From IMG/VR virus record IMGVR_UViG_3300024177_000002: a DNA stretch of 64,000 nt; one strand, written 5' to 3'. Under the pieces are notes generated by a model. That model did not search any database, was not told the origin of the DNA, and worked only from the letters and a program-made list of their open reading frames with translations. Of the stretch, positions 4,605 to 62,436 are shown one piece after another (positions within the stretch are counted from its first letter, which is position 1; each line of letters opens with the position of its first letter). The translations under genes and the position numbers were made by a program. This stretch comes from an uncultured virus (IMG/VR IMGVR_UViG_3300024177_000002). Its lineage: Duplodnaviria > Heunggongvirae > Uroviricota > Caudoviricetes.

Positions 4605-4665
4605 GGTAAGCCTTTCGCTTTAGAAGTTTGCTTTTTGTCGGCATTTATCTTTCTCTTACGTCGGA

Positions 4666-12040: not shown

Positions 12041-12697
12041 TTATAGCTTAGGAAGTAACATAACGTCGTATGTGTCGATTGGCCAGTGAGGCTGAACAAC
12101 GTTCCACATGGTGGCTTTGAATTTTCCATCCATCGACCAAATATCGTATCCTAAATCAAAGATGAATTCAACGAATGTTTTTGGATCGTCTCCGACAGCG
12201 GCCAGATACTTCCCAAACTCACAAAGAATTGGAGGATGCCATTTGCGGAGAGTCTTTTCAGCGCCTAGCAGAACTTTGAACTCATATCCGTCAACGTCGA
12301 GTTTGAAAAGGCCGATTGGATCACCATCCAAGTACGAATCCAGCGTGATGGTCTGCATATCAAATGGTTTCGCGTCCTTCATCTCAGGTTTGATGTTTAA
12401 ACCACCCATGCCAACTTGCCCGATTGTCCACGCTTCAAGCACGGTTACGTCTCGCAAAACTTCAGCCTTGTCCGAAAGTCCAAGCATGTTCAGGTGTGCC
12501 TTCGGATTTTCGCCGTGAGCCACTTTCATTTCAGCAAACATGGCAGGCACAGGCTCGAATGCGTGAACTTCAAAGCCATGGCTTAAGAGGGTTTTGGTGT
12601 AGCCACCGTCGTTGGCACCAGCATCTACGGCGACTTTAACCATGACTTCCTGCATAGCCTTTTCATACAAATACCATGAATCAACGTGGAGATTCAT
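12041..12697 (-). CDS. FkbM-family SAM methyltransferase
   Basis: VDAGANDG, AFEP, KLDVDGYEFKVLLGA. Confidence 0.9.
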   Translation of the reverse strand: MNLHVDSWYLYEKAMQEVMVKVAVDAGANDGGYTKTLLSHGFEVHAFEPVPAMFAEMKVAHGENPKAHLNMLGLSDKAEVLRDVTVLEAWTIGQVGMGGLNIKPEMKDAKPFDMQTITLDSYLDGDPIGLFKLDVDGYEFKVLLGAEKTLRKWHPPILCEFGKYLAAVGDDPKTFVEFIFDLGYDIWSMDGKFKATMWNVVQPHWPIDTYDVMLLPKL

Positions 12698-12703
12698 TCT
12701 AAT

Positions 12704-13330
12704 TTAAGGAGCAATCACCGTATCAAATTGGCTCACAATTCTTGGCAAAACAGTGTAGCACTTGAGCAATGGCAGGGAATGGAACCCCATACTTAAATCA
12801 ACCGGGGCATATACTTTCCGCTGCGTTTGAAGCAGCATCGACAGGGCTTTCTTGGCTACAATATATGCGTGCGTGCAGGCTGGATATTTCAAATCCCAAA
12901 CTTCACCAGCGATTAACGTCTTAGGTTTCCCTTCGCAACAGCATGATCCAACGTAAAGCAGATCAAAATCCTTCGGAACGTCCTGTAATACTTTTACCAT
13001 GCGAGCGTGCCAATCTGTGGGAAATTCAGCATCGTCCTCCAGAATCAAATAATAATCATCATGGAGCAAAGACAGGGCTGCCCAAAGCATGTAATGAGAA
13101 AGAACATTGCCGACTGATTTTGCCTGCATGACATAGCCTGACCCTGGATTGTCAACGTCGTATGGATGCACAGTGCGTAAGCCAGCCTTCTCGGCATGAA
13201 TGCCGTTGAAAAAACTAAAATCAACCCCGCGTTCACGCAAATGCAGTCGCATTCTTTCGGTGCGCTCTGGAGTCTCCGGTAGATTCAGAACAAAAGCTCG
13301 CATTGGTATCATAAATGGGATTTGGTTCAC
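12704..13330 (-). CDS. glycosyltransferase family 25
   Basis: VLNL...ER, LSHYMLW, LILEDDA, THAYIV. Confidence 0.88.
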   Translation of the reverse strand: MNQIPFMIPMRAFVLNLPETPERTERMRLHLRERGVDFSFFNGIHAEKAGLRTVHPYDVDNPGSGYVMQAKSVGNVLSHYMLWAALSLLHDDYYLILEDDAEFPTDWHARMVKVLQDVPKDFDLLYVGSCCCEGKPKTLIAGEVWDLKYPACTHAYIVAKKALSMLLQTQRKVYAPVDLSMGFHSLPLLKCYTVLPRIVSQFDTVIAP

Positions 13331-13427
13331 GGCGAGCGTTCAAAAAACATCAATGTCTTACGACCATATGGACCTTTTGTTCCGTCTGTGCTGCGCAGGA
13401 TTTTTGTTTCTCCAAGGTGAGGTTGAT

Positions 13428-14039
13428 TCATGGTGAAATTACTGTATCAAATTGATCGACGGTTCTTGGAAGGAGCGCCAAGACTTTCATGCGAGGATAA
13501 GCTTCCCACACAGGCTGAATGTCAACCGGGGCAAAAATTCTCCGCATGGATAACATGATAGGCAATGCCTTCTTAGCGATCACATAGGCATGAAAGCAGG
13601 CTGGATATTTTACTTCCCAGATTTCGCCTTTGATATGCTTCTTTGGAGCATCTTTACAACAGCAAGAACCAAGAAATAACATGTCAAAATCTGAAGGAGC
13701 ATCGCGTAAGGCCGCATCAGTTCTTAAATGCCAATCTGGGTGAAACTTCGCGTCAATTTCCAGAATCATAAAGTGTTCATCTGGTTGCAAAGTGAGCGCC
13801 GACCATAAAGCCCAATGGCTCAGGAAAATTCCAGTTGGGTGATAACCGATTTTGAATCCGCTTCCCGGATTGTCCACTTCATAAAGGTGTTCAGTTTGGA
13901 GTCCAGCAACTTCAGCATTAATTCCATTAAAAAACGTCACCTGTACAGAACGCTCTTTGAAATGTGCCGTCGCCTTTGCGGTGCGCTCAGGGGTCTCTGG
14001 AAGGGTGATGCAAAAAGCGCGCATGAAGTTTAGGGCCAA
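13428..14039 (-). CDS. glycosyltransferase family 25 (paralogue; LEID in place of LEDD)
   Basis: Colinear with 12704-13330: LPETPERT, YEVDNPGSG, GSCCC, KYPAC.HAY, QFDTVI.P. Confidence 0.85.
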   Translation of the reverse strand: MALNFMRAFCITLPETPERTAKATAHFKERSVQVTFFNGINAEVAGLQTEHLYEVDNPGSGFKIGYHPTGIFLSHWALWSALTLQPDEHFMILEIDAKFHPDWHLRTDAALRDAPSDFDMLFLGSCCCKDAPKKHIKGEIWEVKYPACFHAYVIAKKALPIMLSMRRIFAPVDIQPVWEAYPRMKVLALLPRTVDQFDTVISP

Positions 14040-14278
14040 TCACGGTAAAGGACCTCGCCTTGAAAATTTTTATCCAAAACCTCGACCGCATTCACTCGAT
14101 CAAACCCGATGATCTGATTAGCCAATACCAATGGATTATACGGCTTGCTTACAATTTTCTTGATCTTCTCCATAATGTCGCGGTTGTCAGGTTGCGCATT
14201 TAGCGGTTCTTCTCGCCAGATGCGAATGGTGATATGCTCAAGGGCAATGCGGGTCATTGATTCGCGTAGAATGTTCAT
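14030..14278 (-). CDS. hypothetical protein
   Basis: 82-aa ORF overlapping both neighbours. Confidence 0.55.
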   Translation of the reverse strand: MNILRESMTRIALEHITIRIWREEPLNAQPDNRDIMEKIKKIVSKPYNPLVLANQIIGFDRVNAVEVLDKNFQGEVLYRDWP

Positions 14279-14883
14279 TTTGCTTTTTCGTAAACCGCAC
14301 CTGTGTCAATGCGGTCAATTTCTTTCCAGCCGTTATTTTGGAGCCATGCATCAGAACCATTTGCGCGAGCGCCGTCGGCCCAGTCTGCATCGTCGAGATG
14401 CAGGATGCCGCCAGGAATCACATTTGGGCAGAATCGCTTCACATCGCGCATGGCTGTTTTACCATGGTTGCCGTCCAGGCGTAAGAAACCTATTCCGGCA
14501 GCCGGAACAACTTCATCTGATTTCTTGCGAATCAAAGTCACGATTCTATCTAAGCCGTATTTGGTCACATTGGCCACGCACTTTTCATAAATGGATTCGT
14601 GATTGAGATTGGCCCACCAATTCTTATGAACCGGATCAACCTGGCCTTCGATTGATGCTCCTGACGACCACGGATCAATGCCGATCACATGGCCTTTTCT
14701 GATATAGGCGTGAGCCATACCCATACAGATAATTCCCTTACCGGCGAACACTCCAACCTCGATTGAAAGTTCCGGTTGTAACTTGATGATAGCCTCGGCG
14801 ATTTGATGACCCTGTTTGGGCGAAGTCCAGCCATCAGCTATTTCTTCCAAGGCAGTGTCAATGTCTTTGAAAAGCGGGATCAT
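14275..14883 (-). CDS. class I SAM methyltransferase (Methyltransf_24-like)
   Basis: IEVGVFAGKG, GIDPW, LRLDGNH, PGGILHLDD. Confidence 0.85.
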   Translation of the reverse strand: MIPLFKDIDTALEEIADGWTSPKQGHQIAEAIIKLQPELSIEVGVFAGKGIICMGMAHAYIRKGHVIGIDPWSSGASIEGQVDPVHKNWWANLNHESIYEKCVANVTKYGLDRIVTLIRKKSDEVVPAAGIGFLRLDGNHGKTAMRDVKRFCPNVIPGGILHLDDADWADGARANGSDAWLQNNGWKEIDRIDTGAVYEKAK

Positions 14884-17192: not shown

Positions 17193-18126
17193 GCCTTCCA
17201 AATTTCAGGCTCACCATTGTCATTAACAATGATAAGGCCACTGGGATATTCGTCATTTCGGCTCAATAATGATCCCGTCTTGAAAATTCGGTATTGAGGA
17301 TTTGGATGCCATGGCGCAAATGTGACGGTCAAGCCGTTGGCTTTGCCGTAAGCGTCCATTTCGGCGTGAGTTGTGTTTGTGACAGACAGGCAGCCGCCTG
17401 ATGCAAGGATTGGGTTCATTTCACAGACAGGGGAAGCAGTGATAAAACTTTTCTTGCAAACTCGATTCGCATAACGAGTTCAGAATCTCGAATCGGATCA
17501 ATTGACTTTGGAGCATCGAATGCCGATAAGCTTGCCAGTCTTTCGAGAGCGCATTTCAGCCGTATTATTTCTGAAGCGCCTGTATCAAGCGCGCGCTGTT
17601 CCAGTTCTGATGTGAGGATTGGGTTCATTTAATGGGAGTTCCTAAATCTTCCAATTTGCAGGAGTCAATCTGAGCGCCGGGATATTTACGCTCAAACATT
17701 TCTACGACAGCTTTCAATTCTTTAAAATCCTGAATGCGGTCAGAATTAACTTCTTTGTGAACAAGGGCGTCACCGATAAAAAATTCGGCTGTGAATTTGT
17801 AGCGATAGTTCATTGCTTCATCCCGCTTAAAACTTAAAGTTGGTTTTCCGTATCTGGCCAGCTACCGATGCCGCTACAGCGCGTATTCCTTGATTAACAA
17901 CATCAGCCAGCGACTCATCGCTTGACTTAAGTTCCCAAGATGTCCGCTCATCGCCAACGCGAAGCTCAAGAATGATACCTGACATTTCAGAACCAGTATA
18001 AAGCGCAGCGATTTCAATTGATATATCTCGCTTGCGAAATAGCATCGGGCTAGTGTTCAAAGCTCGGAGAAGACTCAGCGATTCTTCGGCGAGTTCGCGG
18101 TCAGTCATTTTGCTGATTTGTGTGTT
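17189..18126 (-). CDS. run of four short hypothetical genes (17189-17419, 17416-17628, 17625-17813, ~17827-18129)
   Basis: Tandem ORFs with ATGA overlaps. Confidence 0.55.
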
Positions 18127-18797
18127 CATGAAAGTTTCTCCAATGCGGATTTTACGGCGGTGAAATCTTTGATCGACCATTGATTATGACAATGTTCGAG
18201 TCTGGATAATTTATCTTGGGTAATTCCGCTGGCCAATGCCAAAGCTGTTTGAGAAACATTAAGAGATTTTCGAGTCGCGATAATCCATTCGGAAGCTTTT
18301 ATGCTGTCAACAATATGGCAAGGATTTTGTTCGATGGCGGAGGGTGGAAGGTGGTTCCATGATTCACGTTTAAGTACATGGCCGATTCCTGTGTGGGTCA
18401 TGTTAAATTCAGAAGTTAATTCCATTTGGGTTTTTCGACCGCTAAAATATTCATCTCGAATATAAATCACCCGTTCAACATCAAGAACAGCGGCTCTTGC
18501 GCGTTCACCAATTGGCGGGTTGTGGCGATTCTTTGCCTGCATGTCGTGCATGTTGTCGGTCTGAGTTCCAAGGAAAAGACGATCTGGTTTAACACACAAA
18601 CCAACATCGCAACGATGAAGCACAAACAAGCCATTTGGAATTTCCCCGCGTTCCAACGTCCATGATACCCGATGAGCCGGTATCATTTTACGTCCAATTC
18701 TGAATGAACCGTATCGCGTTCCAGCGCCAGTCCATAACCAGCAATCGTCTCCGGTTTGAACATGACGCATAAATCTTTCCTTGGTTGTAAGATTCAC
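18126..18797 (-). CDS. HNH endonuclease with C-terminal HTH domains
   Basis: CWLWTG, AHRVSW, VLHRCD...CV.PDRLFLGTQTDN; XRE-like C-terminus. Confidence 0.85.
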   Translation of the reverse strand: MNLTTKERFMRHVQTGDDCWLWTGAGTRYGSFRIGRKMIPAHRVSWTLERGEIPNGLFVLHRCDVGLCVKPDRLFLGTQTDNMHDMQAKNRHNPPIGERARAAVLDVERVIYIRDEYFSGRKTQMELTSEFNMTHTGIGHVLKRESWNHLPPSAIEQNPCHIVDSIKASEWIIATRKSLNVSQTALALASGITQDKLSRLEHCHNQWSIKDFTAVKSALEKLS

Positions 18798-28091: not shown

Positions 28092-28347
28092 AATGAACGA
28101 CAAAGAGCCAAATCCATACATGGTCATTTCAGGAATCATCGTCGGGGTCTTTGGCGTCATGTATTTGGTGGGGGTAATTGGAAATCTGTTTTTGAGATTG
28201 ATCGGAAAGCAATGAACTGGATTTACGAACTGTTCAAAGCCCATGGCGCAGATGCTTGGTGGTTCTGCAAGGTGTTTTCTGGTATTATGGGAGCCGGGTT
28301 TATTGCGTGGGCCGCTGGCTGGATCATCCTTTACGTTTTCTTTGACT

Positions 28348-29136
28348 ATGGACATTGAACAGCTCAGAAGCCGCCTTCAGTCGATTGCGAATTGGTTGCT
28401 TCTGTCCCGATGCGGACTGGCCTTCAAATGGCTCTGGCGGCATGTCGCGCCGCCGATTGTTTTCAGTCGCGTGATTTTCGGGAACAAGGTTTTCTTCAAT
28501 CTCCGCGACAACCTGTTTTTCCTCTATTCGACCCGGAAGCATTTGGAAACGCATGAGGGAATTGATGCGATCCTTGCTGGGCTACCCCCGGGAAGCAGAG
28601 TTTGGGACGTGGGTTGCAACGTCGGAATCTACGCGCTTCATGCCGCGCGCCTTGGCCACAATGTCGTTGCCTTCGACCTGTCACCAAAGGCGATTCAGAT
28701 GGTTCAGAAGTCAGCTTCCGAAAACAATCTGAGGATCACTTGCATTCCAAGGGCGTTGCATGTCTGGCCGGAGGTTTATTATGCTCCGAGGACTGCCTAC
28801 GCTGGCAACAAACTAACCTCAATGGGTCATTCTTCACGGCTTTCCACGAGCATAACTTGGATGCTGGCAGCGGAACAATTCGGAATTCCTGACTTTATAA
28901 AGCTGGACATCGAAGGTCTGGAAACCGAATTCCTCAAAAACCCGTCTTTCTGCCGGTGGATTAGGAACAATGGGATTTTGCTCGAAGTGGAGGTTCACAA
29001 TACCGATGCGAGAATCGCTTTAGAGAAATCTTTCAGCAATTTCCGAATGCTTAGTAATAACAACTTCCTCATCGTGCCGTTACCATTTGGTCGGCAAAAC
29101 AAGTCTAGCAATCTGGAATCGGTCAATGTAAGGTAA
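28348..29136 (+). CDS. FkbM-family methyltransferase
   Basis: VWDVGCNVGIY, AFD, PDFIKLDIEGLE. Confidence 0.85.
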   Translation: MDIEQLRSRLQSIANWLLLSRCGLAFKWLWRHVAPPIVFSRVIFGNKVFFNLRDNLFFLYSTRKHLETHEGIDAILAGLPPGSRVWDVGCNVGIYALHAARLGHNVVAFDLSPKAIQMVQKSASENNLRITCIPRALHVWPEVYYAPRTAYAGNKLTSMGHSSRLSTSITWMLAAEQFGIPDFIKLDIEGLETEFLKNPSFCRWIRNNGILLEVEVHNTDARIALEKSFSNFRMLSNNNFLIVPLPFGRQNKSSNLESVNVR

Positions 29137-29689: not shown

Positions 29690-30259
29690 TTGCAGCTCGG
29701 CGGCCTCTTGAAAGTTAGTGATGACGTGAGCGAACACAAAAGCGTGAGTACGACGACTGAGGGTAGCGATGAGGTAAAGTTGGCCACGTTGAGCCTTGAG
29801 GTTAAGGCTTTGCGTGAAAGTTTTAAGGAAAGCACTCAGAGCCGTGATGCTTCGTTCAAGGAGATCAAAGATTCCATTGAGAAGCTGAAGTCCAAGCCCG
29901 CGAACAACTGGTTTCAAATGTTCGTGATGGTTGGTTTCTTGTCACTCGTTTTCGGCGCTTATGTTTACCCGATTAAGACGGACATTGACAATAATCGGAA
30001 GGATATCGTTAAGAATCAGGAGTTGGCTCAAAAGGATTTGGCCCTTGCGAAGCGCGACATTGACGACGTTTCCAAGGTCGTCGCCAACAATCGGGAAATT
30101 ACTTTGAAAGACTTGGCTCTGATTCACGCAGACTTTGAGGCGGTGAAACGCGAGAACATCTGGAACTGGGACGGCATGAAAACCAGGCTGGACAACCTCA
30201 CCAAACAGCTTGACCTGATGTGGAAAAGGGTATTTGGTGGCGAGGATAAACTCAAATGA
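29690..30259 (+). CDS. membrane-anchored coiled-coil protein (lysis region); start uncertain
   Basis: One TM segment (WFQMFVMVGFLSLVFGAYVY) flanked by coiled coils. Confidence 0.55.
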   Translation: MQLGGLLKVSDDVSEHKSVSTTTEGSDEVKLATLSLEVKALRESFKESTQSRDASFKEIKDSIEKLKSKPANNWFQMFVMVGFLSLVFGAYVYPIKTDIDNNRKDIVKNQELAQKDLALAKRDIDDVSKVVANNREITLKDLALIHADFEAVKRENIWNWDGMKTRLDNLTKQLDLMWKRVFGGEDKLK

Positions 30260-30405: not shown

Positions 30406-30914
30406 TGGAAGAAAAATGTTCAGGCGGTCGAACCCACGAACCAAGTTTGAGGGAATTGTGCGCGGACTTGGACGGGTTCAAGCGGTTGATGGATGAGCGG
30501 GACAAGCGGTATGAACAGAGTTTCACGCAGTCCAAGGAATCGGTGGCCTCGGCGTTAGCGGCGGCCAAGGAGCAAACCTCGGCGTCCTTCAACGCGTCGG
30601 AGAAGGCCATTGCCAAGGCGGAGTCGAGCCAGTTGCAGTATAATGCAACGCATAACGACCTGACTCGGAAGATGGACGCGCAATACAAGGAAATGTTGCC
30701 GCGCCTGGAGTCGGAAGGGAAGTTCAATGCGATTGCCGAGAAGATCGAGGATGTGAAAAGGGAACTGAACGCGCTGCGTGACTTTCGGAGCGAGACGGTG
30801 GGGCAGCGGGTGCAACAAACCTCGGACAAAGGTCAATCAAACTGGGTGATTGGAATCGCCATTGGGTTGATCCTGGCAGTGGTGGAAGTAATTTTGAAAC
30901 TGGTGAAAGCATGA
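30405..30914 (+). CDS. coiled-coil protein with C-terminal TM
   Basis: ERDKRYEQ.F...AKEQ...SEKAIAKAE; C-terminal WVIGIAIGLILAVV. Confidence 0.7.
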   Translation: MEEKCSGGRTHEPSLRELCADLDGFKRLMDERDKRYEQSFTQSKESVASALAAAKEQTSASFNASEKAIAKAESSQLQYNATHNDLTRKMDAQYKEMLPRLESEGKFNAIAEKIEDVKRELNALRDFRSETVGQRVQQTSDKGQSNWVIGIAIGLILAVVEVILKLVKA

Positions 30915-31120
30915 ACAAAGACAAACAGAGAATCAAAGAGTTAGAGGCGCAGATCAGCGTCTTGAGTCTTAACCCGAATCAATCTGGCTGGCTCCTGGTT
31001 CAGTCCATGCAGTCGGCAGACTTTCCCCTTGACCCTGTGAATCGCGGAAAGACCGCAGAAGATTTTCCCAAATGGCCGGCTGCGAAAGTTGCCAAGGTCC
31101 CAAACTGGAAAGATTTATGA
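30911..31120 (+). CDS. hypothetical protein
   Basis: 69-aa ORF with ATGA overlap. Confidence 0.5.
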   Translation: MNKDKQRIKELEAQISVLSLNPNQSGWLLVQSMQSADFPLDPVNRGKTAEDFPKWPAAKVAKVPNWKDL

Positions 31121-31242
31121 ATTTTACACTTTGCAGGTGGGCGTGCATTCTCGCCTCGCAAAAAGCCGGGAGTGCCGCAACCGTAAGGCCGGCAGGAGTT
31201 TCAGTGAGTTTCTCCTCATAAGCTCCCGGCGCACAGTTTAAT

Positions 31243-31545
31243 ATGAAACTAAGCAATGGAACGAACATCTCCGGGATTGCTGGAATCGTGGCGACGATAG
31301 CTAATGCCATCCGGTTGCTCACCGACGGCGATCCAAGCACAAACCCTGATTGGGTGGCTACGATAGCCGCAATTTCGACGGCCATCGGGTTGCTCTATGC
31401 CAAGAACCACAATGTGAGTAATAGCCCGACGCCGACGGCAGCGGCTGAAGTGGTCAAAACTATGGTGCCATCGACTGAAATCATTCCGTCTGCTCCAGTG
31501 GTAACGACGGGCGAAACGGCGGTTTACACGAGAAAAGAACCGTGA
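31243..31545 (+). CDS. holin-like two-TM membrane protein
   Basis: TNISGIAGIVATIA...DGDPST.PDW...AIGLLYAK; two hydrophobic segments. Confidence 0.6.
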   Translation: MKLSNGTNISGIAGIVATIANAIRLLTDGDPSTNPDWVATIAAISTAIGLLYAKNHNVSNSPTPTAAAEVVKTMVPSTEIIPSAPVVTTGETAVYTRKEP

Positions 31546-31789
31546 AAACCGAGCCAGCGAAAGTTGTTGAAGTCAAGGTTGAGCCGGAAGCGCATTAATA
31601 AGATTGGCCGCAGGGCTATCTCCAGAAGAAACGCACGGCTTTCTTTTTGAATCACAATGAGGTTCTACCATTGGCTTTGCGTAACCGTCTTTTTCTGAGT
31701 ATTGAGACGGACTGTAATAACGAATGATCTTCACTAATTGGCGACACGACGGACACCAAATTGATCCAAAGTAGCCGAATCCTTTCGCA

Positions 31790-32068
31790 GCGATTGCGAG
31801 ACAGGCGAGCCAGCTTTGAGAAAACCAAGCCGGTAATATGGCCGCGCTCAATGTCCTTCATCATACGCTTGGCTTCGGCATGTTGCATGACGGCCTTGCC
31901 GCTTTGTCCGGCAAGGTCGTAAAGTTCTTTGACCTGCCAGCCTCGGCTTTTAGCATAACTTCGGGCACGTTCCTCGTGATGATCGGGGCTTTCGCCTTCG
32001 GCTTGGTCTTCGGTGGAAACACGAATCCAGATGCCAACCGGTTTGTTCAAGTCACTATTTTCCTTCAT
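31790..32068 (-). pseudogene. serine recombinase, C-terminally truncated (about 90 aa of the catalytic domain)
   Basis: VGIWIRVSTEDQ...SGK...FSKLARLSRNR, then abrupt loss of similarity; recombinase and Zn-ribbon domains absent. Confidence 0.85.
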
Positions 32069-32151
32069 ACCACGAGTTCCTATCAAAAATCACCCGTGCA
32101 CTGCAAGAAAAAAGTGTATGCAAACCACATTTATTTGCTAAAACTGTCTGC

Positions 32152-32382
32152 ATGTCAAAAGCACTCCGAGAAAGAGATTTGGTCGCACTGGCTAAACGGT
32201 TCCGAATGCAGGCGGGGATAACGCGGGCGCAAGCCGCGCGGGAAATGAAAGTTTCGCAGACCTCCATCTTTAGCGCAGAAGAAACGCCGGAACAAGCTCT
32301 GGTCAAATTGCGGATGCGGATGATTGAAACGTATTCGCCTTTCAAGGTCGTGGGCGCGGTCTATTTCCTCCAACGGAAATAA
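32152..32382 (+). CDS. XRE-family HTH protein
   Basis: RMQAGITRAQAAREMKVSQTSIFSAE; divergent from the recombinase. Confidence 0.75.
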   Translation: MSKALRERDLVALAKRFRMQAGITRAQAAREMKVSQTSIFSAEETPEQALVKLRMRMIETYSPFKVVGAVYFLQRK

Positions 32383-32464
32383 TTACCGCGCGCACTGCGA
32401 ATTCTGGGCCAAGACTGCCGGAAATGGCTCGGCCCAATCGTTCTTCGTTCAAGCCTAATCAAAG

Positions 32465-34513
32465 TCAGGCGGCAAGGATTGCGGTCTTAGGTAGCGGAAA
32501 AATCGGCTTTGTATCTGTGACTCGCACCCCTTGCTCAGGTTGATAATCCAATGTGATCAATACTCCTTCTTCGTTTTCAAGGCTTCTTAATCGACGGCAT
32601 AGCAATTTCGCCAATTCAGGGTCTTCGATTGTGCAAATAATCTGACGTCCCGTTTGTCGGATCGCCGACAAAACCTCGACAAGATGGAGAGCTCGAAAAT
32701 CATCAATGTGTTGCACAGGGTCATCCAATACTAATGCGTTTAAATGACACCATGAACGTGAAAGATGAACCGCAAGTAGGAAAGCTAAACCGGCAGCCCT
32801 GCGTTGCCCGTTGCTGAACATAAACCGGGGATTCAGGTCTTCCCCGATTCTCAAGCTTAGGAAACGGCGGACATCGCCTCGAGTGATATAAGAAACCGTT
32901 GGCCAATCGACGTGAGGTTTAAGACGAGTATAAAGCTCCGTTAATAAGGGAGAGAGTTCAGCAAGCCGCTCGTCAACCAGTTCCCCCGCAACTCGCTTTA
33001 CCGTAGCCGCCGCTTCCTTAAACCTTTCCTCAGCACTTTTGGCTCTCGAAACCACTTTGGCTAGGGCTTCTGAATCCTTCTGACACTGGGTGAGTCCTTT
33101 CTCAAGTTCTGCAACGCGTTCCAACGCCTTAGAGCCGTCGAGGACGCCGAGATGCTTTTCAAGTGTCGATAACTGAGCTTTAACTCGGTCAGCGTATTCA
33201 GTGACGTTTGTAGGGCTGATTGTTTCAGATGGGATATCAGGAAGGCCCAAAGAGTTCACTTTTTGAAGCAATGCCGAGCGTTCTAATTTCAATATCTCAG
33301 TGAGAGTCGAGAGGTCTTTATATTGTCGTTCCATAGAATCACACTCACTGACTAAACGCCTAAAGTCGTCGCTCGCCTTAGTCCTTTCCCGAATCAAATC
33401 AGCTGATGCCTTGTTTTGCAATTCTACGCGAGCTTTGATTGATTGCAGTCGCTTCTCAAAAGTATCCTGCGACAACTCGAGCCCGCAAAGCGGACAAGAG
33501 CCATTTTGCAATCCCAACGCAGATCCATGCTGGTGGAGGCCAGCCCACTCAGCAATATCCGCAGAGTTAAGAGTACCGCTTTTTATCTGCGCCTCTAATG
33601 CTTGAGCATCAGCCTGACGCTGGTCTCGCTTGGCCTTAGCAGCTAGTAATGAGGCTTCCATTGCATCTTTGTGTGCTGTGAATTCGGGCGTGGTGGCTTC
33701 AGCGAGACGCTTCTCGACCGTCGAAAGTTGTCTCGCATAGTTTAGGAGAGCGTCTAGCGTACTTTTCAGCGCAACCGCATTAGATTTCGCGACGCGAATG
33801 ACCTCAGACATTTCGCCCGCAGGGCGATTGGAGGACTGACGAACGTACCTTTCGGCTTCACCAACGTCCTCGGCCTTCAGGGCCTGCGACTTTACCGAAC
33901 TGATCCTACTCGTGAACTCGGTTATCCTGAAACGGCCCTTTTCATATTCCGACTCAAGACGCTCAACCCGAGTCTTAAAAGTTTTTGTGAGGACATTTGC
34001 GGCTGATTCCAGTTCTGAATGGTCCCGTGCTCCCAAGCAAGCCTTAACGAAGCTGAAACGCTCCGTCTCGGCCAAATCTAGGCTCAATTCTGAAATCTGT
34101 TCACCTCTTAACAGGGAGGTTCTACATAGATAATTAAGACTGTCTAATGGGCGCGAAAGTTTTTCACACAGCAAATCGAGCAATTCTTGTTCAGAAATTC
34201 CGTGCAATCCTTGGGAATTACGTTCGATCAAAACGCGAGTGCCGTCCTTTCTCTGAATTTCAATTTGAACAAAGCGACTTTGGGGTCTTTCCTTACCTCG
34301 CCACCAAACGTATTCAGCAATTCCTTCTCCACTTTCCTTTGCTGGGTTGAATTTCGAGAGAGTTCCGCAAATTGCATATTCAATCGCGTCGCACACCGTG
34401 CTTTTTCCCGCTCCGTTCGAGCCGGTGATGACTGCGAAGCCGTTCGGAAAGGTTAAATTAAGCTCTCCTTTTACTCCTCGAAATCCAGCGGCCTTAATGC
34501 TTACAATGTTCAT
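32465..34513 (-). CDS. lmuB: SMC/Rad50-like ABC ATPase (Lamassu LmuB / ABC-3C ATPase)
   Basis: Walker A GSNGAGKS, coiled coils with CPLC Zn hook, signature FSNGQRR, Walker B LVLDDP. Confidence 0.82.
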   Translation of the reverse strand: MNIVSIKAAGFRGVKGELNLTFPNGFAVITGSNGAGKSTVCDAIEYAICGTLSKFNPAKESGEGIAEYVWWRGKERPQSRFVQIEIQRKDGTRVLIERNSQGLHGISEQELLDLLCEKLSRPLDSLNYLCRTSLLRGEQISELSLDLAETERFSFVKACLGARDHSELESAANVLTKTFKTRVERLESEYEKGRFRITEFTSRISSVKSQALKAEDVGEAERYVRQSSNRPAGEMSEVIRVAKSNAVALKSTLDALLNYARQLSTVEKRLAEATTPEFTAHKDAMEASLLAAKAKRDQRQADAQALEAQIKSGTLNSADIAEWAGLHQHGSALGLQNGSCPLCGLELSQDTFEKRLQSIKARVELQNKASADLIRERTKASDDFRRLVSECDSMERQYKDLSTLTEILKLERSALLQKVNSLGLPDIPSETISPTNVTEYADRVKAQLSTLEKHLGVLDGSKALERVAELEKGLTQCQKDSEALAKVVSRAKSAEERFKEAAATVKRVAGELVDERLAELSPLLTELYTRLKPHVDWPTVSYITRGDVRRFLSLRIGEDLNPRFMFSNGQRRAAGLAFLLAVHLSRSWCHLNALVLDDPVQHIDDFRALHLVEVLSAIRQTGRQIICTIEDPELAKLLCRRLRSLENEEGVLITLDYQPEQGVRVTDTKPIFPLPKTAILAA

Positions 34514-35037
34514 TGTTCTTCCAGCAGTATGTCAATGACTGAGGTTGTTGCATCCCCTTTACGAAGGGCAGCGAGTTCGTTAGCATTCAAAAAAGAAAGT
34601 CTGCTTTCGAGTCTAGGGAGAGAATCGTAATCCTTCAGTGTCACAAGATTCTTTATCGGTAGTAATGGGAAGAGAGCTGCATAAAGTTCGTCGGACGAAG
34701 CTATTTCGGCCTCCACAATTTTTCTCGTTCCCCGGAAATCCTCTTCGATTTTCAGAATGTCCGTCTTGCGTGCCGGAGGGCATTCCGCATCGGTTATGAA
34801 AATTGAATATGCGTTCCACGCCTTTGCTGGGAATGAACGAAGCCGTATCGAATTGCGGGCAAGAAATGAATCTTGTGACTGCTCCCATGTAGCGATTATA
34901 TCTTCTACAGTAAGCGCGGTACTGATGAATCCGAAAAGGGTCTCATCCTCAAACAGAAGCCATTCCTTCTCGGCGAGTCGGGCAGTGTGGTAACCCGCTT
35001 CATCCAAAATCTTCTGAGCTTCGTAATTCAGATCCAT
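34510..35037 (-). CDS. lmuC: ABC-3C middle component / LmuC-like protein
   Basis: 175 aa between effector and SMC ATPase, coupled to both; KAWNAYSIF...IEEDFRGTRKIV. Confidence 0.65.
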   Translation of the reverse strand: MDLNYEAQKILDEAGYHTARLAEKEWLLFEDETLFGFISTALTVEDIIATWEQSQDSFLARNSIRLRSFPAKAWNAYSIFITDAECPPARKTDILKIEEDFRGTRKIVEAEIASSDELYAALFPLLPIKNLVTLKDYDSLPRLESRLSFLNANELAALRKGDATTSVIDILLEEQ

Positions 35038-36042
35038 TTAGATTCCCAATTGTGCAATTGCCATTTCACTGGTGAGCCAGCGGGCACCGCCGCCTGACGC
35101 TCGAACAACCGAAGGCGGTGAGCCGCCGCGAACGAGGTGAGCTGGAACCCCGCCGTCGTCAGCAGCGCCGGCACAAATTACAAATTGATCTGGTTGCGAC
35201 GGAGGTGTTTCACCAGCAAACAGCTTTTGCACAAGACTCAGTGCCTGTCCCGCACCTTGCACTACCCTGAGGCGATCAACGCCCAAGACAAAACGGGGTT
35301 CATCCAACGTCGCGCCTTTTGCAAGCAATCTCAAGTGGATCGCACCTATTTGGGCGGAAGAGTTGGAAGGGTGTTTTTCCCGAACAATCTGAGTATCCGG
35401 AATTCCAACGTAGTCGCGTCTCATGGCATAGAAATCGATTGAGGTCTTACTCCTGTCGAACGACGTAGGCGGCACAGCTTTTCCGGTCATGGTGATAAAC
35501 GTCGTTTCGGCCTGCGCCAATAGCTGCTCGAAAAACTTGATTGTGAATTCTTTCCGAAGTTCGTCTAAAACGTCAGCGCCGCTTTCCCTTTCGTGCAGGA
35601 ATAGAAATTTTCCACTGTTCGCCCAATTCCAAAGATTGGGAGCCTTTGCCTTAAGGCCAGCTGCGTCCATCGGATCAACCAAAACAACAAGGGAGGGCTC
35701 GGTTGCGACGATACAGTCTTCAATGATGGTGTTCAGGTAATCCCAATCGGACCAAAAGCCGACAAACATCAAGTCTTTCGACTTCAATTGACCATTCAAC
35801 CAGGTTTTGGAAGAATCTATTCTTGTCTTGATAGTGTTTTCTGTTAGCTGTTGACGGCACCACAAGGTTTCATCCTTGTCTCGCCGACAACATCCATGAA
35901 TTTTCAAGAAAGGCTGATGCGGAAGCGCTTTAACGGCTTCTGAGCCATCCAACGCCGCCTCAAACAGAGGTTCACCAAGACCTTCGGCCGCCATTTCGAC
36001 AAGAGTGTCAAAATTTGTGCTGATTCCGAATTGCACAATTTT
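35038..36042 (-). pseudogene. Sir2-like effector (LmuA-Sir2), N-terminally truncated
   Basis: STNFDTLVE, LKIHGC and FVGFWSDWDY are present; the N-terminal GAGxS loop is missing; an in-frame ATG at 36078 adds unrelated residues. Confidence 0.72.
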
Positions 36043-36164
36043 CAAGTCCAGGCAACCGCGAAGTGGCCTCAGACACATGCAATTTGACCTATCCCTATTC
36101 CATTGTCAAGCCCCATCGAAACATTTTTCTTTCCAAATGCGAGCGGAGCCTTTAGAGTGGACAA

Positions 36165-36587
36165 ATGACCTATCCAAATCGTCGGACTGTATTCACCGTC
36201 GTCATGCTCGCAATCGGCGTGGTCATTGTGCTGCTTGGAAGCGGGTGCGCAATCGAGAAATTTAATCGCCCGCCAGAATGGGCGAGCATTATTACGACGC
36301 ACGGAAGGTTCTTTGGCCTCAATGCCACCATTCCGACCGGAAGCGCGGAAACCATTGGAGTCAAGCTTGGGTGGGGCAGCACAACTTGGACGGTTTTGCC
36401 CGTCGCAACTAACGTGACCTACGCTCCAAAAGTTTCTGACACGTTTTCAGTCGGTCAGAGCCTGAATCCCTTCGACACCACGATCAGGGAGTACCTGCAA
36501 ACCGGGTGGGAAGGGAGCACCACGCCAACGCCAGCCATGCGGTTACTGGAGCCTAGGAACTCAACAAATACGGTCAACAAACCATGA
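36165..36587 (+). CDS. lipoprotein
   Basis: Hydrophobic signal followed by lipobox-like LLGSGC. Confidence 0.72.
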   Translation: MTYPNRRTVFTVVMLAIGVVIVLLGSGCAIEKFNRPPEWASIITTHGRFFGLNATIPTGSAETIGVKLGWGSTTWTVLPVATNVTYAPKVSDTFSVGQSLNPFDTTIREYLQTGWEGSTTPTPAMRLLEPRNSTNTVNKP

Positions 36588-37081
36588 ACAAAAAACTAAC
36601 ATCCATCCTCGCCGTCCTGGCGATTGTCGTCCTGTCGGGATGCGCAACAGGAAGTAAACCACTCATCAGCCCAAGCGTCGTCCAGCAAGGCGTCACTGCT
36701 GGCGTCAAAGCCGGAACGCTGAAATGGCCAACTGCAATTCCATACGTCGAAGCTTCAGTCGCCGTGATTTGTTCGGAGGCGGCAGGGACAAACCTTTCCC
36801 CGGCTCAAGTTGTGGCGGACTTGGAAAAATCGGGCGCTGCCGCGTTTAAGACAGTCGAGGGCGTTCTGATCGTCCAAGGCGGTTTGTTGCTCTACACGAC
36901 CATCTGGAATGCCTTTGGGGCCGATGCGGTGAACAATGCGCCGGTATTCAAAGGTTACCTCCAAGCGGTTTGCCAAGGCATGCACGATGGTTTGCCGCCT
37001 TCTGGCGACACAGCCGGAGCGCGTGCAAGGCGTAATGCGCCAGACACGTCTAAGGCGTGGCCGCAGCTTAAATTTCCGTGA
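36584..37081 (+). CDS. lipoprotein
   Basis: MNKKLTSILAVLAIVVLSGC. Confidence 0.8.
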   Translation: MNKKLTSILAVLAIVVLSGCATGSKPLISPSVVQQGVTAGVKAGTLKWPTAIPYVEASVAVICSEAAGTNLSPAQVVADLEKSGAAAFKTVEGVLIVQGGLLLYTTIWNAFGADAVNNAPVFKGYLQAVCQGMHDGLPPSGDTAGARARRNAPDTSKAWPQLKFP

Positions 37082-37083
37082 TT

Positions 37084-37828
37084 TTATTGAACATGCCGCC
37101 AAGTTTTGCCAGTAACTGCTCGTTTTACGGTTGATCCATCAATGCCGTAATGTCGCCCAATGGAATTGTAACTTTCGCCACTTGCAAAACGCAACCTAAT
37201 GTCACGAACTTTTACTTCGTCTAGTTTTGCTTTGCTGTTATCAACGCCGCGCTTAAGTTTTTCAGGATATAAACGCGACCCGTTATTGTCTCCCACGGCC
37301 TGCCTTTTCTTCGCGCACATATCGTTAGAATTGTCGGCGTTTGTTCCTAGCCAAAGATGGTCTGGGTTTACGCACAATGGATTATCCCCATCAGGACAGT
37401 TACGAAGAACGCAAAGTCCATTAGGAATACTTCCGTTGTGGATAATCCAAGATGCGCGATGGGCGGATACGGTCTTGCGTCCCATGTTAAAACCGCCGTA
37501 TTTGTTGCCTTTGAACACCCACCCTGTCCACAACCAGCAACTTGTGGTTTTAAGGACATTAGAGAAAAACCTTTCTGGAACAGGCCGAGTTTTGGCCTTA
37601 TCTGCGCACGATTTGCTACAGAATTTACCACATCCTTTATCCAAAACGCATTGGTGAATTATGAATTTGGCATCGCAAAATTCGCACAGTTTTTCAACCG
37701 GAAGCCTGCGATGTGGATTTTTGATTGGACGGGATTCTTGAATTACTGGTATTGTGTTTTCAGCGGCATTCATAAGTTGCTTTATTTTGCTGTCAGCGAT
37801 GGGCGCTCGGCTCGAACCGGCGCTCATT
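37084..37828 (-). CDS. HNH endonuclease, possibly inactive (catalytic His replaced by Arg)
   Basis: CWLWTG, AHRASW, LCVL[R]NCPDGDNPLCVNPDHLWLGTNADN; own TTGACC-17-TACGTT promoter. Confidence 0.8.
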
Positions 37829-37883
37829 GCGTTTAACGTATGAAAAATTTTGCTGACGGTCAACCTCAAACCAAAGGAACAAA

Positions 37884-38537: not shown

Positions 38538-39356
38538 ATGAGCGACCCATTCAACCCTGTAATTCAAAAGCTGGGCGATGTGCTGACCACCGAGGAAAAC
38601 ATCTTGGCCAACGAGCAAGAGGTGTGGAAAAGGATCAATCAGCAACGCGGGCCAACGATTGCGGTTATCAATGCCAGCACGGTCGTGACGGATGCGGATG
38701 CGGCGAAAGTAACGGCGGCGCTCCAGATTCAGGTTTCGCGTGATCTTTATCCCGCTTGGGGATTTGACGCTAAACTTCTTTTCATTCCAAAGGGCGCCGT
38801 TGCTCCGTCAGGATCATGGCAAGTCGCTATTTTAGATGATAGCCCACAAGCTGATATTCTCGGATTTCACGATTGGAGCAAAGACGGGCTTCCGCTTGCA
38901 AAAGTTTTCGCAAAAACAGATATTGATGCAGGTTCACCTTGGTCAATTTCGGCATCACACGAAATAGCCGAAATGGGGGCTGACCCAGATATTTCCAGAT
39001 GTGTATTTCGGGAGCAGTTTGGACAGATTGTAGCTCTTGAGAATTCAGATGCCCCGGAATCAGACCAATACGCGTACTTGATCAATGGCGTGATGGTGAG
39101 CGACTTTGTATTTCCAAGTTGGTTCGAGGATTTCTGGTCTCCAGGTCAAACACAATTCGATTACGGAAAGCATATTGACCGACCGTTCCAGCTTTTACCC
39201 GGAGGATATATTGGAGTTTTCGATATAAAGGGATCAGGCGGATGGACACAACTTACGCACAACCGGGAATCCAATCGAAAATCCCGCGCTCCCATCGGCA
39301 GCCGCCGCGAACGCCGGCGAACTCCAAGGGATCAGTGGCAGCGCAGTTCAATATGA
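38538..39356 (+). CDS. zincin-like metallopeptidase-domain protein (HExxE)
   Basis: LGFHD...WSISASHEIAEMGADP...E.SDAPE...VSDFVFPSWF. Confidence 0.6.
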   Translation: MSDPFNPVIQKLGDVLTTEENILANEQEVWKRINQQRGPTIAVINASTVVTDADAAKVTAALQIQVSRDLYPAWGFDAKLLFIPKGAVAPSGSWQVAILDDSPQADILGFHDWSKDGLPLAKVFAKTDIDAGSPWSISASHEIAEMGADPDISRCVFREQFGQIVALENSDAPESDQYAYLINGVMVSDFVFPSWFEDFWSPGQTQFDYGKHIDRPFQLLPGGYIGVFDIKGSGGWTQLTHNRESNRKSRAPIGSRRERRRTPRDQWQRSSI

Positions 39357-43207: not shown

Positions 43208-43234
43208 CACTTGACAATGGCGTCAAGTCAAGTG
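43208..43234. terminator. inverted repeat between convergent operons
   Basis: CACTTGAC...GTCAAGTG. Confidence 0.4.
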
Positions 43235-43929
43235 CTCTGCTCAATCTTTGAAATTTCTGCCTGAAGCTTTTCCCGCTTCCGTTTTAAGCGTTCAAAATCA
43301 GCCAGTGTTTTTGTAACTTTAGCCGCTCGATCAATCATGCCCAAGGTGTGCCTGACGCGATCCAAACCTGCAACATGAGTTTTATCGGCAAGAATCATAT
43401 AGACATTGCTCACGCTGGTCTTAAATCTTGCGGCCAGTTGTTCCGCAGTAATTCCATCTTGATAAAGCTTCCGCATCAAATCTGCATTCTCGTTTGTGAC
43501 TCTACGCCGCCGATTATTGATAATCTGATTGCGCTTTGCCTCAACTTCTTCCTCTGTCCATTCTTTGGTTGATTTGTGCGAGTATTTGGACAGTTGATTG
43601 CGAACGTAGCTATCAGTGCAAAGTTCAGATTCAAGCTGCGCCCTGGCTCTGAGTTCAAGGCGTTTTGCCTTTCGCATTTTGGCGGAATTGGCAAGCCACT
43701 TCTCCCGGTTGTTCGCAATCCATTCTTTGGTTTTCTGACGCCAATGCTCTGGATTATTCCAGTAGGTAAATTGACGTCTTCGTTTTAATCTTAAAGCCTT
43801 GGATGGTATCTTTCGATACGCCAGGGCTAGGTGTTTAGCCTTTTCTCTGAAAACTGGATCAGTGCGATACCTTATGCGCATTCTTTTACGCCGAAGTATG
43901 GCATCTCGTGTGTTAAGCAGTTTTTTCAC
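43228..43929 (-). CDS. basic DNA-binding protein with HTH
   Basis: K/R-rich; LYQDGITAEQLAARFKTSVSNVYMIL. Confidence 0.6.
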   Translation of the reverse strand: MKKLLNTRDAILRRKRMRIRYRTDPVFREKAKHLALAYRKIPSKALRLKRRRQFTYWNNPEHWRQKTKEWIANNREKWLANSAKMRKAKRLELRARAQLESELCTDSYVRNQLSKYSHKSTKEWTEEEVEAKRNQIINNRRRRVTNENADLMRKLYQDGITAEQLAARFKTSVSNVYMILADKTHVAGLDRVRHTLGMIDRAAKVTKTLADFERLKRKREKLQAEISKIEQST

Positions 43930-44097
43930 TGGCTCAAAACTTTCTTCGACAGTTGTTGCAGTAAAAATACAGTCCGTGGTCCGGCACGCAGTCCTGCGAC
44001 GCACAGTAAGGACACTTCATATTAAATGTTTTCCACAGCCAATAGATGGCAATAGGCAATCCAGCTATCAAAATCACTATCAAGCCAATTACGGGTA

Positions 44098-52566: not shown

Positions 52567-52899
52567 ATGACTGGCCGAGAATCGCCAATGCCGCTCTTTG
52601 TGAAAAAGTATCTGAGCGCCACGGTGGGGCTGGATAATTCGGAGCATGGTGCCTACATGCTGTCTCTGATGAAATATTGGGTTAAAGGCGGCGCATTGAC
52701 GACAGAGGAATTGAAAGAGGCTTGCGGTCGAGAATTTGATCAGGTTAAGCGATTCTTTGTTTTCGACAGCGGCCTTTGGAATAACGAGCAATCAGACAAA
52801 CAATTGAAGCTGGCTTGGGCGAGAGAAAAATCAGCGAGAGAAAAAGCGATGAAGGGCGTGGAAGCTAGAAGGCGAAATGGATCGTTGCCGCCAAAATGA
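52567..52899 (+). CDS. DUF1376/YdaU-family protein (short form)
   Basis: MPLFVKKYLSATVGLDNSEHGAYMLSLMKYW..GG.L. Confidence 0.78.
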   Translation: MTGRESPMPLFVKKYLSATVGLDNSEHGAYMLSLMKYWVKGGALTTEELKEACGREFDQVKRFFVFDSGLWNNEQSDKQLKLAWAREKSAREKAMKGVEARRRNGSLPPK

Positions 52900-57284: not shown

Positions 57285-57479
57285 AACTGTTGACAGGTGG
57301 ATGGGGTTTGGGCAGGATTGAGGCATTGAAACGGTTGGCGATCAACCGAGAATAATGAAACCAGTCACGATAAACCGAATATCCAGAGAACCTCATCGCT
57401 GCGGCTTTTTCACGCTCTCCCAGAGCGCCTGTTTCGCCGGATCGACAGAAGGTGAGGTTCTTTGGATTTTTGGTGTTTC

Positions 57480-58358
57480 TTGAAATCCCCTGCCTTCCAG
57501 TTCTACCCCACTGATTACCTTGCAAGTCAGAGGGTTCAAATGATGACCCTTGAAGAAGAAGGCGCGTATTGCCGGTTGCTTTGGTCGTGTTGGCAACATG
57601 GCTCCATACCATCTGACCCAGAACTTGCCGCTCGCCTTGTTGGTAAGGGTTGTTCAGCCACCGTTGCAAGGGTGGTTCTGCCAATGTTCGAGGTTCCATG
57701 CGGCGAAGGTAGACTGACCCATGACAGACTTGAACGCGAAAGGGAGAAACAAGCTGAATGGAGGAAAAAATCTTCCGAAGGCGGTAAAAAATCCGCTGAA
57801 ATGAGATCAATTTCCAAGGGTGGTTCAAGGGTGGTTCAAGCACCGTATCAACCAAAGGGCAACATTCCAGTCTCCGTACTCCAGTCTCCTATTCCTGTAC
57901 GTACCAACATAAACGGCGAATCTTCGATTGAAGAAGTCGGCCAACTCATCGAACAACTGGGGTTTACAATTTACAACCGAAATGAAGGACAACATCCAAC
58001 CTACGATGAAGAACACGCCGCACTTGAAATTACCAAACGACCAGATTGGCAATCCGAGAAAGATCAAATACTTGCCTTCGGGAGAATTATTGATCCAAAG
58101 GATCGCAGGTTTGATATGCCTAAAACACTTCTGAAATTACTCACAAATTGGTCATCGGCTCTCGATTCAGCCAGAAATTACAAACCCCATGCAAACAGCC
58201 AAACCTCTAAACCAAATCCTAGAAACATTGGTGTCTGTCGCGCCGGCCCTTCATATGGCGAGGCCGCAAAGCTTAAACAGCAACGGCAAAGCGAAAGAAT
58301 GGGCAACCAAGTGGCTCAGGATTCAAATCAAAAACCACCCGAAGTTGCTGGAACTTGA
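57480..58358 (+). CDS. DUF1376/YdaU-family replication initiator with internal iterons
   Basis: KSPAFQFYPTDYL...MTLEEEGAYCRLL..CW..GSIP; followed by a DnaC-like gene. Confidence 0.85.
   Translation: MKSPAFQFYPTDYLASQRVQMMTLEEEGAYCRLLWSCWQHGSIPSDPELAARLVGKGCSATVARVVLPMFEVPCGEGRLTHDRLEREREKQAEWRKKSSEGGKKSAEMRSISKGGSRVVQAPYQPKGNIPVSVLQSPIPVRTNINGESSIEEVGQLIEQLGFTIYNRNEGQHPTYDEEHAALEITKRPDWQSEKDQILAFGRIIDPKDRRFDMPKTLLKLLTNWSSALDSARNYKPHANSQTSKPNPRNIGVCRAGPSYGEAAKLKQQRQSERMGNQVAQDSNQKPPEVAGT
57645..57840 (+). repeat. iteron-like repeats CAAGGGTGGTTC inside the initiator gene
   Basis: Copies at about 57667, 57815 and 57826, plus variant AAGGGTTGTTC at 57645. Confidence 0.75.
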
Positions 58359-62097: not shown

Positions 62098-62436
62098 CTA
62101 TGCTTCGATCACGTGCCGCCATCTGGCATAAAATGCGTCCATGGCCTGAACGGCGGCGATGTTGTCGTTAGGGTCTTTGACTAAATCACCGCCAGCGTTT
62201 TTGTGTCCGAAAAATATTGAGCTAACGTAATTTGAGTACATTTCCGGGTGATCCTCAAAACCGAGACGGATAGCAGAATCCGCGCAGACCATTTGCCACG
62301 ATGTTCCAGAAGCATCGCAAATATGTCCCGCAATACAGCCACGAGTTCCACACCACGAGGTATCCCAATCGAAATTCTCCGGTTGCGTCTTAACGCGCTC
62401 ACGAGCCTTATTCCAAAGTTCTTTGTTAAAGTTCAT
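62098..62436 (-). CDS. hypothetical protein
   Basis: PENFD...CGTRGCIAGH, a motif common in phage proteins. Confidence 0.65.
   Translation of the reverse strand: MNFNKELWNKARERVKTQPENFDWDTSWCGTRGCIAGHICDASGTSWQMVCADSAIRLGFEDHPEMYSNYVSSIFFGHKNAGGDLVKDPNDNIAAVQAMDAFYARWRHVIEA

Follow-up and report, generated by a model that had tools for sequence, protein, structure and literature searches.

Introduction

How does a bacterial immune operon, cut through at both ends, come to lie in the genome of a bacteriophage, and does it still do anything there? The question is raised by a stretch of 64,000 nucleotides from an uncultured virus (IMG/VR record IMGVR_UViG_3300024177_000002), hereafter the window. 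In it a minus-strand block of about 4.26 kb carries the genes of a Lamassu defence system: an effector gene with a Sir2 domain (lmuA), a gene for a small middle component (lmuC) and a gene for an ATPase of the SMC/Rad50 kind (lmuB), followed by a small helix-turn-helix (HTH) gene and the beginning of a gene for a large serine recombinase. An earlier description, made from the letters of the window and here called the sequence-only reading, had seen in this block a captured piece of a host defence island, broken at both ends, and had proposed that the shortened effector might act as a decoy. We find that the block is indeed a fragment, broken within the Sir2 lmuA gene and within the recombinase gene. 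The account of it that we favour, if only tentatively, is that of a recent and inert fragment of an integrase-linked Sir2-type Lamassu cassette in what is probably a complete soil phage genome.

Results

The block is broken inside two genes

The right-hand end can be located by comparison with an intact Lamassu operon on a soil metagenome contig of 7,914 bases (Ga0193718_1000623, here L082), which encodes a Sir2 LmuA of 442 amino acids, a LmuC of 175 and a LmuB of 682. Its nucleotides 1980-5558 align with window positions 36042-32464 at 90.78% identity over 3,579 nt without a gap (blastn), and this identity breaks off inside lmuA at one end and immediately past the stop codon of lmuB (32464) at the other. 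Residual homology beyond 36042, through a possible 7-nt indel, was rejected, as it did not reach significance in a shuffle test (fraction 0.14). At the protein level, tblastn with four full-length Sir2 relatives (442-494 amino acids) begins to match at residue 106, which corresponds to window position 36051 (at residue 157 in the longer one of them, P0003); the N-termini of the four have no match anywhere else in the 64-kb window. Blastn and tblastn thus agree with each other and with the sequence-only reading, which had placed the right end inside a Sir2 gene near 36042 with the N-terminal GAGxS loop absent. An ATG at 36078 had also been said to be in frame, and it does open an open reading frame (ORF) of 346 codons. 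The first 13 or so of these are unrelated sequence that supplies the in-frame ATG, whereas residues 14-346 of the product align with residues 109-442 of the intact 442-residue protein. The right-flank spacer upstream of 36078 measures 86 bases.

At the left end, window positions 32068-31784 encode residues 1-95 of serine recombinases of 496-497 amino acids (P0122, P0124, P0133 and P0141; 90.5-93.7% identity), and the remaining 400 or so residues (96-496) are not in the 64-kb window. The similarity, previously put to an end near 31790, ends at 31784. The true start of the gene is the ATG at 32068 and the catalytic-serine motif is present, but past codon 95 the frame runs through unrelated sequence to a stop at 31652, the lower limit of the stretch that is read on the minus strand from 36078. 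Compared with large serine recombinases (496-497 amino acids, PF00239 plus PF07508), the stump matches their N-terminal 95 residues and lacks the rest, and it holds only positions 3-85 of the 145 of the Resolvase profile. Judged by what is encoded, it cannot be active: the catalytic domain is cut short, and the recombinase domain and all that follows it are absent.

Neither a direct nor an inverted repeat common to both ends of the block was found, which bears out the earlier impression that terminal repeats are not evident. One 24-nt repeat pair (at 31575 and 35910, 83% identical) lies off both breaks and was taken as chance.

The genes between the breaks form a Sir2-type Lamassu operon

Between the breaks the operon is compact: the start codon of lmuC directly abuts the stop codon of lmuA, and lmuB and lmuC overlap by 4 bases. 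LmuB is the best-supported component, with the PADLOC LmuB profile covering residues 19-654 (expectation value, E, of 3.5e-34), SMC_N and AAA_23 above their cut-offs, and Walker A and CxxC motifs in the translation. LmuC scores 23.8 bits against the MComp1 cut-off of 27.3 and matches the PADLOC LmuC model weakly (E 0.0089); its identity is backed by its position and by homology to the LmuC of 76 syntenic loci. The Sir2 protein matches no PADLOC model, and the PADLOC LmuA models miss the intact L082 relative too. Of the Lamassu assignment in the sequence-only reading, the PADLOC run upholds LmuB firmly, gives LmuC a weak match below the curated cut-off, and recognizes the effector not at all. 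That the HTH, middle-component and ATPase genes are intact was correctly read: LmuB (682 amino acids) and LmuC (175) have exactly the lengths of their L082 copies, and the HTH protein has 76 residues against 76-78 in most of its homologues.

In amino acid sequence the shared part of LmuA is 92.5% identical to that of L082, LmuC 93.7% and LmuB 91.2%. Upstream of the L082 operon is a tyrosine integrase; downstream (L082:5656-7912) come QatD (E 2e-109) and then QatC (E 9e-179). Going by these neighbours, the operon sits in a compact defence island. The sequence-only reading had proposed a BLAST search with the insert to find the donor; an intact operon 91% identical to that of the window does exist, in a defence-island context. 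L082 differs from the window in having a full LmuA of 442 amino acids and different neighbours, and in lacking the HTH and serine recombinase genes.

A scan of genome contigs with LmuB gave 80 loci, the best of them only 42% identical over the full length. The order Sir2-LmuC-LmuB recurs in 76 of the 80, and an HTH or recombinase gene next to Lamassu in none; one locus (L047) has a weak recombinase match (31%) 6 kb off its Lamassu genes and on the other strand. Set beside the Sir2-effector Lamassu of PMC12663957, the window shares gene order and coupling, an SMC/Rad50-like LmuB with a CxxC hook and a small LmuC. It differs in the effector: that LmuA consists of an N-terminal Sir2 domain and a C-terminal domain, and the window copy lacks the first 105 or so residues together with the upstream region.

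The effector has lost the NAD-binding part of its Sir2 domain

A database search returned 273 relatives of the Sir2 protein, and the statistics on starts and motifs that follow refer to the 120 homologues listed, most of which have 412-453 amino acids. A full-length N-terminus, with a start within 15 residues, is found in 98 of these 120. Another 18 start 16-60 residues in, most of them at the Met just after GAGLS, and for the most part these look like miscalled starts. Beyond residue 100 there are only three other starts, with V or L as the first residue, which look like partial gene calls. The sequence-only reading had allowed that homologous effectors might naturally start at this position; we examined this and found no natural short form starting there among the 120.

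In an AlphaFold model of the intact L082 LmuA (predicted local distance difference test score, pLDDT, 92.9), the lost residues 1-105 comprise a helix (3-14), a strand (18-22, beta1), the GAGLS loop that binds nicotinamide adenine dinucleotide (NAD), and helices up to residue 107, with five helices altogether. The GAGLS motif occurs within the first 120 residues in 99 of the 120 homologues. Against solved ThsA, KomC and DSR2 chains the Sir2 domain takes up profile positions of about 4-216, and Foldseek alignments of the L082 model to stand-alone Sir2 domains run to about 290 columns; on this basis the window copy is short of roughly one third to one half of the domain. The catalytic Asn (N22, in TNFD) and His (H61, in KIHG), both invariant alignment columns, are retained. 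The loss of the N-terminal loop claimed in the sequence-only reading holds, in that alignment and model agree that the NAD-binding N-terminal part of the domain is absent; by reasoning from known Sir2 folds, NAD binding and NADase activity would be lost with it. The Sir2 domains of ThsA, DSR2, KomC and SPARSA resemble both the family profile (sequence comparison, E 5e-9 to 1e-6) and the modelled L082 protein (Foldseek, E 4e-9 to 1e-6). They are joined to other partner domains, and of the fold that they have in common with the intact family the window copy retains the second part alone.

Could the system nevertheless still work, with LmuB and LmuC, together with the shortened LmuA or another effector, guarding the infected cell against other phages? 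In favour of this, LmuB and LmuC are complete and well conserved, the Sir2 domain still has its catalytic Asn and His, and PMC12663957 mentions Lamassu variants short of a component. However, beta1 and the nearly invariant GAGLS loop are gone, no listed homologue naturally starts where this protein does, and the operon has been cut off from its native upstream region. On this evidence it is very improbable that the block still serves in defence or exclusion.

The joins are unlikely to have been made by the assembler

The sequence-only reading had held neutral capture and an assembly chimera to be equally possible. For a chimera, reads from a phage and from a Lamassu-bearing bacterium would have been joined by the assembler, as may happen in a metagenome contig, and the recombinase stump does come from a very abundant, highly conserved soil family. 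Three further observations bear on the matter.

First, the window is part of a contig of 77,207 bases, 13.2 kb of it outside the window, and a second assembler produced the same joins: in run X1, the probable source, a Logan contig of 77,096 bases shows 0 differences across 30500-37500. On either reading of its coordinates this Logan contig would extend more than 25 kb past one end of the window, and since the window contig has only 13.2 kb beyond the window, the two cannot be collinear. They are probably permutations of a single molecule of about 77.1 kb, either circular or circularly permuted, and the phage genome is probably complete. Second, a run from another soil study (X2) contains four identical short contigs, all within 31574-35289. 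One of them, of 151 bases (31744-31894), crosses the left break, being identical over 40 bases on one side and 111 on the other, and another identical piece lies at 31574-31724. The pieces cover 6 of 30 bins, the right break not being among them; that all should fall in 31574-35289 has a chance of about 0.17 if they are uniformly placed, and their distribution does not discriminate between phage and donor as their source. Third, a repeat-driven mis-join in the recombinase would run on as recombinase, which the sequence does not.

The right break has been seen in the probable source sample only, which a chimera would explain. Against this stand the two assemblers with the same joins and without a difference over 7 kb, two contigs with different end points, as expected for a closed circle that holds the block, and the identical piece over the left break in another study's sample. 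The earlier parity of the two explanations is not borne out: a chimera now has very little probability indeed.

The truncation appears to be recent

Relative to L082, the ratio of nonsynonymous to synonymous substitution rates (dN/dS) is 0.089 for the remainder of the Sir2 protein, 0.091 for LmuC and 0.139 for LmuB. Within LmuA the catalytic remnant (0.089) and the C-terminal domain (0.090) do not differ in this respect. Changes specific to the window number 5, 4 and 7 with three outgroups, as against 6, 6 and 6 specific to L082, so that no acceleration of rate is seen. When a conserved column is defined by the same residue in at least 95% of relatives (for LmuC, 47 other sequences), the window keeps 14 of 14 in LmuC, 36 of 38 in LmuA and 85 of 87 in LmuB. 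The two misses in LmuA lie in the unrelated leader and both misses in LmuB are common to L082, which leaves no window-specific loss of a conserved residue in any of the three proteins.

By these measures the genes that remain have not decayed, and selection on them does not seem to have changed. This fits a recent event, with most of the divergence from L082 older than the truncation. The absence of decay in itself neither supports nor excludes a function.

Does the truncated effector act as a decoy?

The phage might produce the LmuA with its dead effector domain, alone or together with LmuB and LmuC, against a Lamassu system of its host. Three routes can be envisaged: the C-terminal domain could occupy the position of LmuA in the LmuB2-LmuC complex of the host; it could enter the active oligomer together with host LmuA freed on activation, and poison it; or LmuBC lacking an effector could cover the DNA ends by which the host system is set off. 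In Cap4-type Lamassu, according to PMC12663957, the C-terminal domain of LmuA contacts LmuB and LmuC and mediates the tetramer on activation, to which the effector domain adds little. A preprint on Salmonella Lamassu proposes that phages could evolve decoys which sequester liberated LmuA (10.1101/2025.03.14.643221).

Several features of the locus suit such a role. The C-terminal domain, which has the docking and tetramerizing function in the solved Cap4-type complexes, is complete in the window, its 147 residues differing from those of L082 at 11 positions; with the whole domain kept, a decoy makes mechanistic sense. None of the three ORFs is interrupted, the ATG is in frame and no conserved residue has been lost. 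A possible target exists in soil in the form of the intact 91%-identical system, and the same sequence has been recovered from the sample of a second study.

However, dN/dS is the same in the dead Sir2 remnant and in the C-terminal domain, and the rate has not changed on the window branch. The native upstream region is gone, and a scan for promoters and terminators on the minus strand upstream of 36078, based on an E. coli-type consensus that may not suit the host, found no promoter-like site there, the counts not exceeding those in shuffled sequence. The only other Lamassu system found on a viral contig (L081, described below) has a full-length LmuA, so that 0 of 1 share the truncation, and the integrase stump that accompanies the effector shows a random cut, not tailoring. 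Moreover, docking by the window's own C-terminal domain would be an analogy: the domain (35041-35481; pLDDT of the model 84.2) does not significantly resemble any solved chain in the PDB, the best Z being 4.5 and Foldseek giving nothing at E 0.001 or better, and its putative role is ascribed to it by position. It is modelled as a mixed alpha/beta fold, whereas for the short Cap4-type LmuA PMC12663957 describes a bundle of 5-6 helices. The weak best structural matches are mostly restriction-endonuclease-like (VRR-NUC, Hjc, FokI and Can2; Z 3-4.5). In the literature searched, no paper spoke of a Lamassu inhibitor or an anti-Lamassu factor. Taken together, we regard a decoy as improbable.

Capture from a host or erosion in place

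The sequence of events that would best account for the block starts from a source cassette with the order recombinase, XRE HTH, lmuB, lmuC, lmuA. Most likely it arrived by non-homologous recombination with a host island or a prophage, with both cross-overs falling inside genes. It would not work as an immune system, as LmuA lacks the first 105 or so residues of Sir2 and as the native upstream region, with the operon promoter, would have been lost; the block would then be passenger DNA, too young to have decayed. We infer the loss of expression, the acquisition route and the host. A single insertion is favoured because the plus-strand ORFs that end at 31545 and resume at 36165 would rejoin in one array if the block were removed.

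The alternative is that nothing was captured. A temperate ancestor would have owned the serine integrase, the XRE regulator and a complete Lamassu moron, and the phage, now lytic, would have eroded them in place, one deletion taking integrase codons 96-496 together with the attachment site and a second taking the 5' end of lmuA and the promoter. The block lies between the virion genes and the recombination and replication genes and is transcribed in the opposite direction; on lambda-type maps the lysogeny module usually has that place and orientation. No other integrase was seen in the 64-kb window, though 13 kb of the genome, which may hold one, lies outside, and the composition of the block equals that of the phage.

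The closest parallel is L081, an IMG/VR contig that encodes a 459-residue Sir2 LmuA, LmuC and LmuB and then, after about 1 kb, a large serine recombinase of 578 amino acids, all on one strand. Order and strand are as in the window, and in both a Lamassu system stands beside a serine recombinase, in L081 on a contig that bears a terminase. It is the only locus that the IMG/VR scan with LmuB returned, and it is distant: its LmuB is only 32% identical, all its genes are full length, and its recombinase is not a close relative of the stump (no tblastn match at E 1e-3). The same region (L081:2703-15890) also encodes a C5 methylase and a ParB-N6 methylase besides the terminase.

Erosion in place needs two independent deletions that spared everything between them, and with plus-strand ORFs on both sides the module would split a plus-strand array. 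We consider it unlikely, if far from negligible; single capture of host DNA and erosion of the phage's own module by two deletions both fit the data and cannot be told apart by them.

A number of observations weigh against a recent, inert capture and should be set out together. Block and phage have the same G+C content (49.2% each), and the tetranucleotide profile of the block is no more deviant than that of another phage region. The block occupies the place where temperate phages keep their integrase, with no second one seen in the window, which favours erosion. The identity with L082 ends at the lmuB stop, and no contig joins Lamassu, HTH and recombinase genes in a donor. Scans of IMG/VR with proteins of the flanks (36584-37081, 29690-30259 and 38538-39356) gave no relatives of the phage, and neither an empty site nor the acquisition route has been seen. 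The right break, as noted, comes from one sample. Finally, three ORFs that stay open over 3.6 kb behind an in-frame ATG make a selected function possible, and the null promoter scan is subject to its choice of consensus.

The recombinase-HTH module and the donor

Homologues of the recombinase stump number 2,790, and over the first 95 residues the best 120 are 86-94% identical to it. For the HTH protein there are 339, of which the 120 listed, the window's own copy aside, are 68-88% identical, many carrying an XRE-family name in their source. In three cases an HTH homologue and a recombinase homologue come from contigs of equal size (23,866, 29,765 and 25,146 bases), each pair probably from the same contig, and the two genes would on that ground form a module. 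The recombinase and its XRE partner (proteins P0121-P0362) are a very abundant soil module, and the genomes after which it is named are mostly those of Verrucomicrobia. A cluster look-up with ten proteins supplied no organism names. Source names among the listed HTH and recombinase homologues are Verrucomicrobia in 6 of 7 cases, the seventh being Candidatus Angelobacter (Acidobacteriota by NCBI), and the donor, hence the phage host, is probably a Verrucomicrobiota-type bacterium.

A scan of IMG/VR with the full-length recombinase returned three loci, the best 64% identical, none with informative context. One small contig there (L118:1-5340) carries the same peptide of about 40 residues at both ends in opposite orientations, together with a 498-residue recombinase 64% identical to the stump family.

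The phage genome around the block

The replicon that carries the block is a tailed phage (Caudoviricetes). By profile families the window encodes Erf, a YqaJ-type exonuclease, a DnaC-like loader, two DUF1376 primosomal proteins, Dam, an ArdC-like protein, several HNH endonucleases and a collagen-like tail fibre. Two further proteins are leads from a look-up by language model and structure, not alignments: one of 609 amino acids, at 4666, resembles viral terminase clusters (score 0.99), and one of 454, at 19188, resembles an N4-gp56-type major capsid protein (template-modelling score 0.57/0.72, which reaches the bar of the service). Pfam and PHROG gave no match to a terminase or capsid family, and PDB sequence searches with two virion candidates gave nothing useful. 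A near-identity DNA search of the phage collection with 31000-37000 found no match. The features of the block and its flanks are collected in Table 1.

Table 1. Positions of the truncated Lamassu cassette, its break points and the adjoining phage features in the window
Feature	Coordinates	Strand	Evidence or remark
Spacer of 238 bases, 45% G+C	31546..31783		between the last plus-strand phage ORF and the recombinase break
Large serine recombinase stump, first 95 codons of ~496	31784..32068	-	Resolvase E 8e-12; phrog_95 integrase E 9e-21
Small XRE-type HTH gene, 76 amino acids, divergent from the recombinase gene	32152..32382	+	HTH_31 E 4e-4, below cut-off
lmuB (SMC/Rad50-like ABC ATPase, CxxC zinc hook), 682 amino acids, intact	32465..34513	-	PADLOC LmuB 3.5e-34
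lmuC (ABC-3C middle component), 175 amino acids, intact	34510..35037	-	MComp1 E 4e-5; PADLOC LmuC E 0.0089
Truncated lmuA (Sir2 effector), 346 amino acids	35038..36078	-	SIR2_2 E 4.1e-9
Right break: last base of DNA identity to the L082 operon (36042), first aligned codon of relatives (36051)	36042..36051		blastn, tblastn
Two small ORFs with signal-peptide-like N-termini, the second with a canonical lipobox	36165..37081	+	no family match
HNH homing-endonuclease-like gene, ~1 kb from the right break	37084..37869	-	phrog_1872 E 8.5e-24

Some features of the phage stand apart from the block. Three HNH endonuclease genes and a fourth endonuclease-like gene (9617-10297, 18126-18797, 37084-37869 and 62426-62824) are scattered through it. 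FkbM-type and other methyltransferases and two family-25 glycosyltransferases are clustered at 12041-14883 and 28243-29136. The DUF1376 paralogues lie about 5 kb apart (52567-52899 and 57462-58358), with the DnaC-like loader after the second, and a 258-residue protein encoded at 43228-44004 has a resolvase-type HTH_7 at residues 165-207 and no detectable catalytic domain.

Discussion

What the block is can be answered more firmly than how it arose. The significance of the locus depends on which explanation of its state is right. Were the shortened effector a decoy, it would be the first natural Lamassu inhibitor and the first natural example of the LmuA decoy predicted by structural work, as well as a ready-made reagent for testing the release-and-oligomerize model of activation; interest in it would increase greatly only if it proved to be expressed and to inhibit a cognate Lamassu.

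The recombinase-HTH module meanwhile offers a lead to the host of a phage for which relatives were not found. If, as we tentatively hold, the block is a recent and inert fragment, it provides a clean and datable case of the travel and breakage of a defence cassette: a Lamassu system cut at arbitrary points, lying in what is probably a complete phage genome, with an intact counterpart, 91% identical, that appears to sit in a bacterial defence island.

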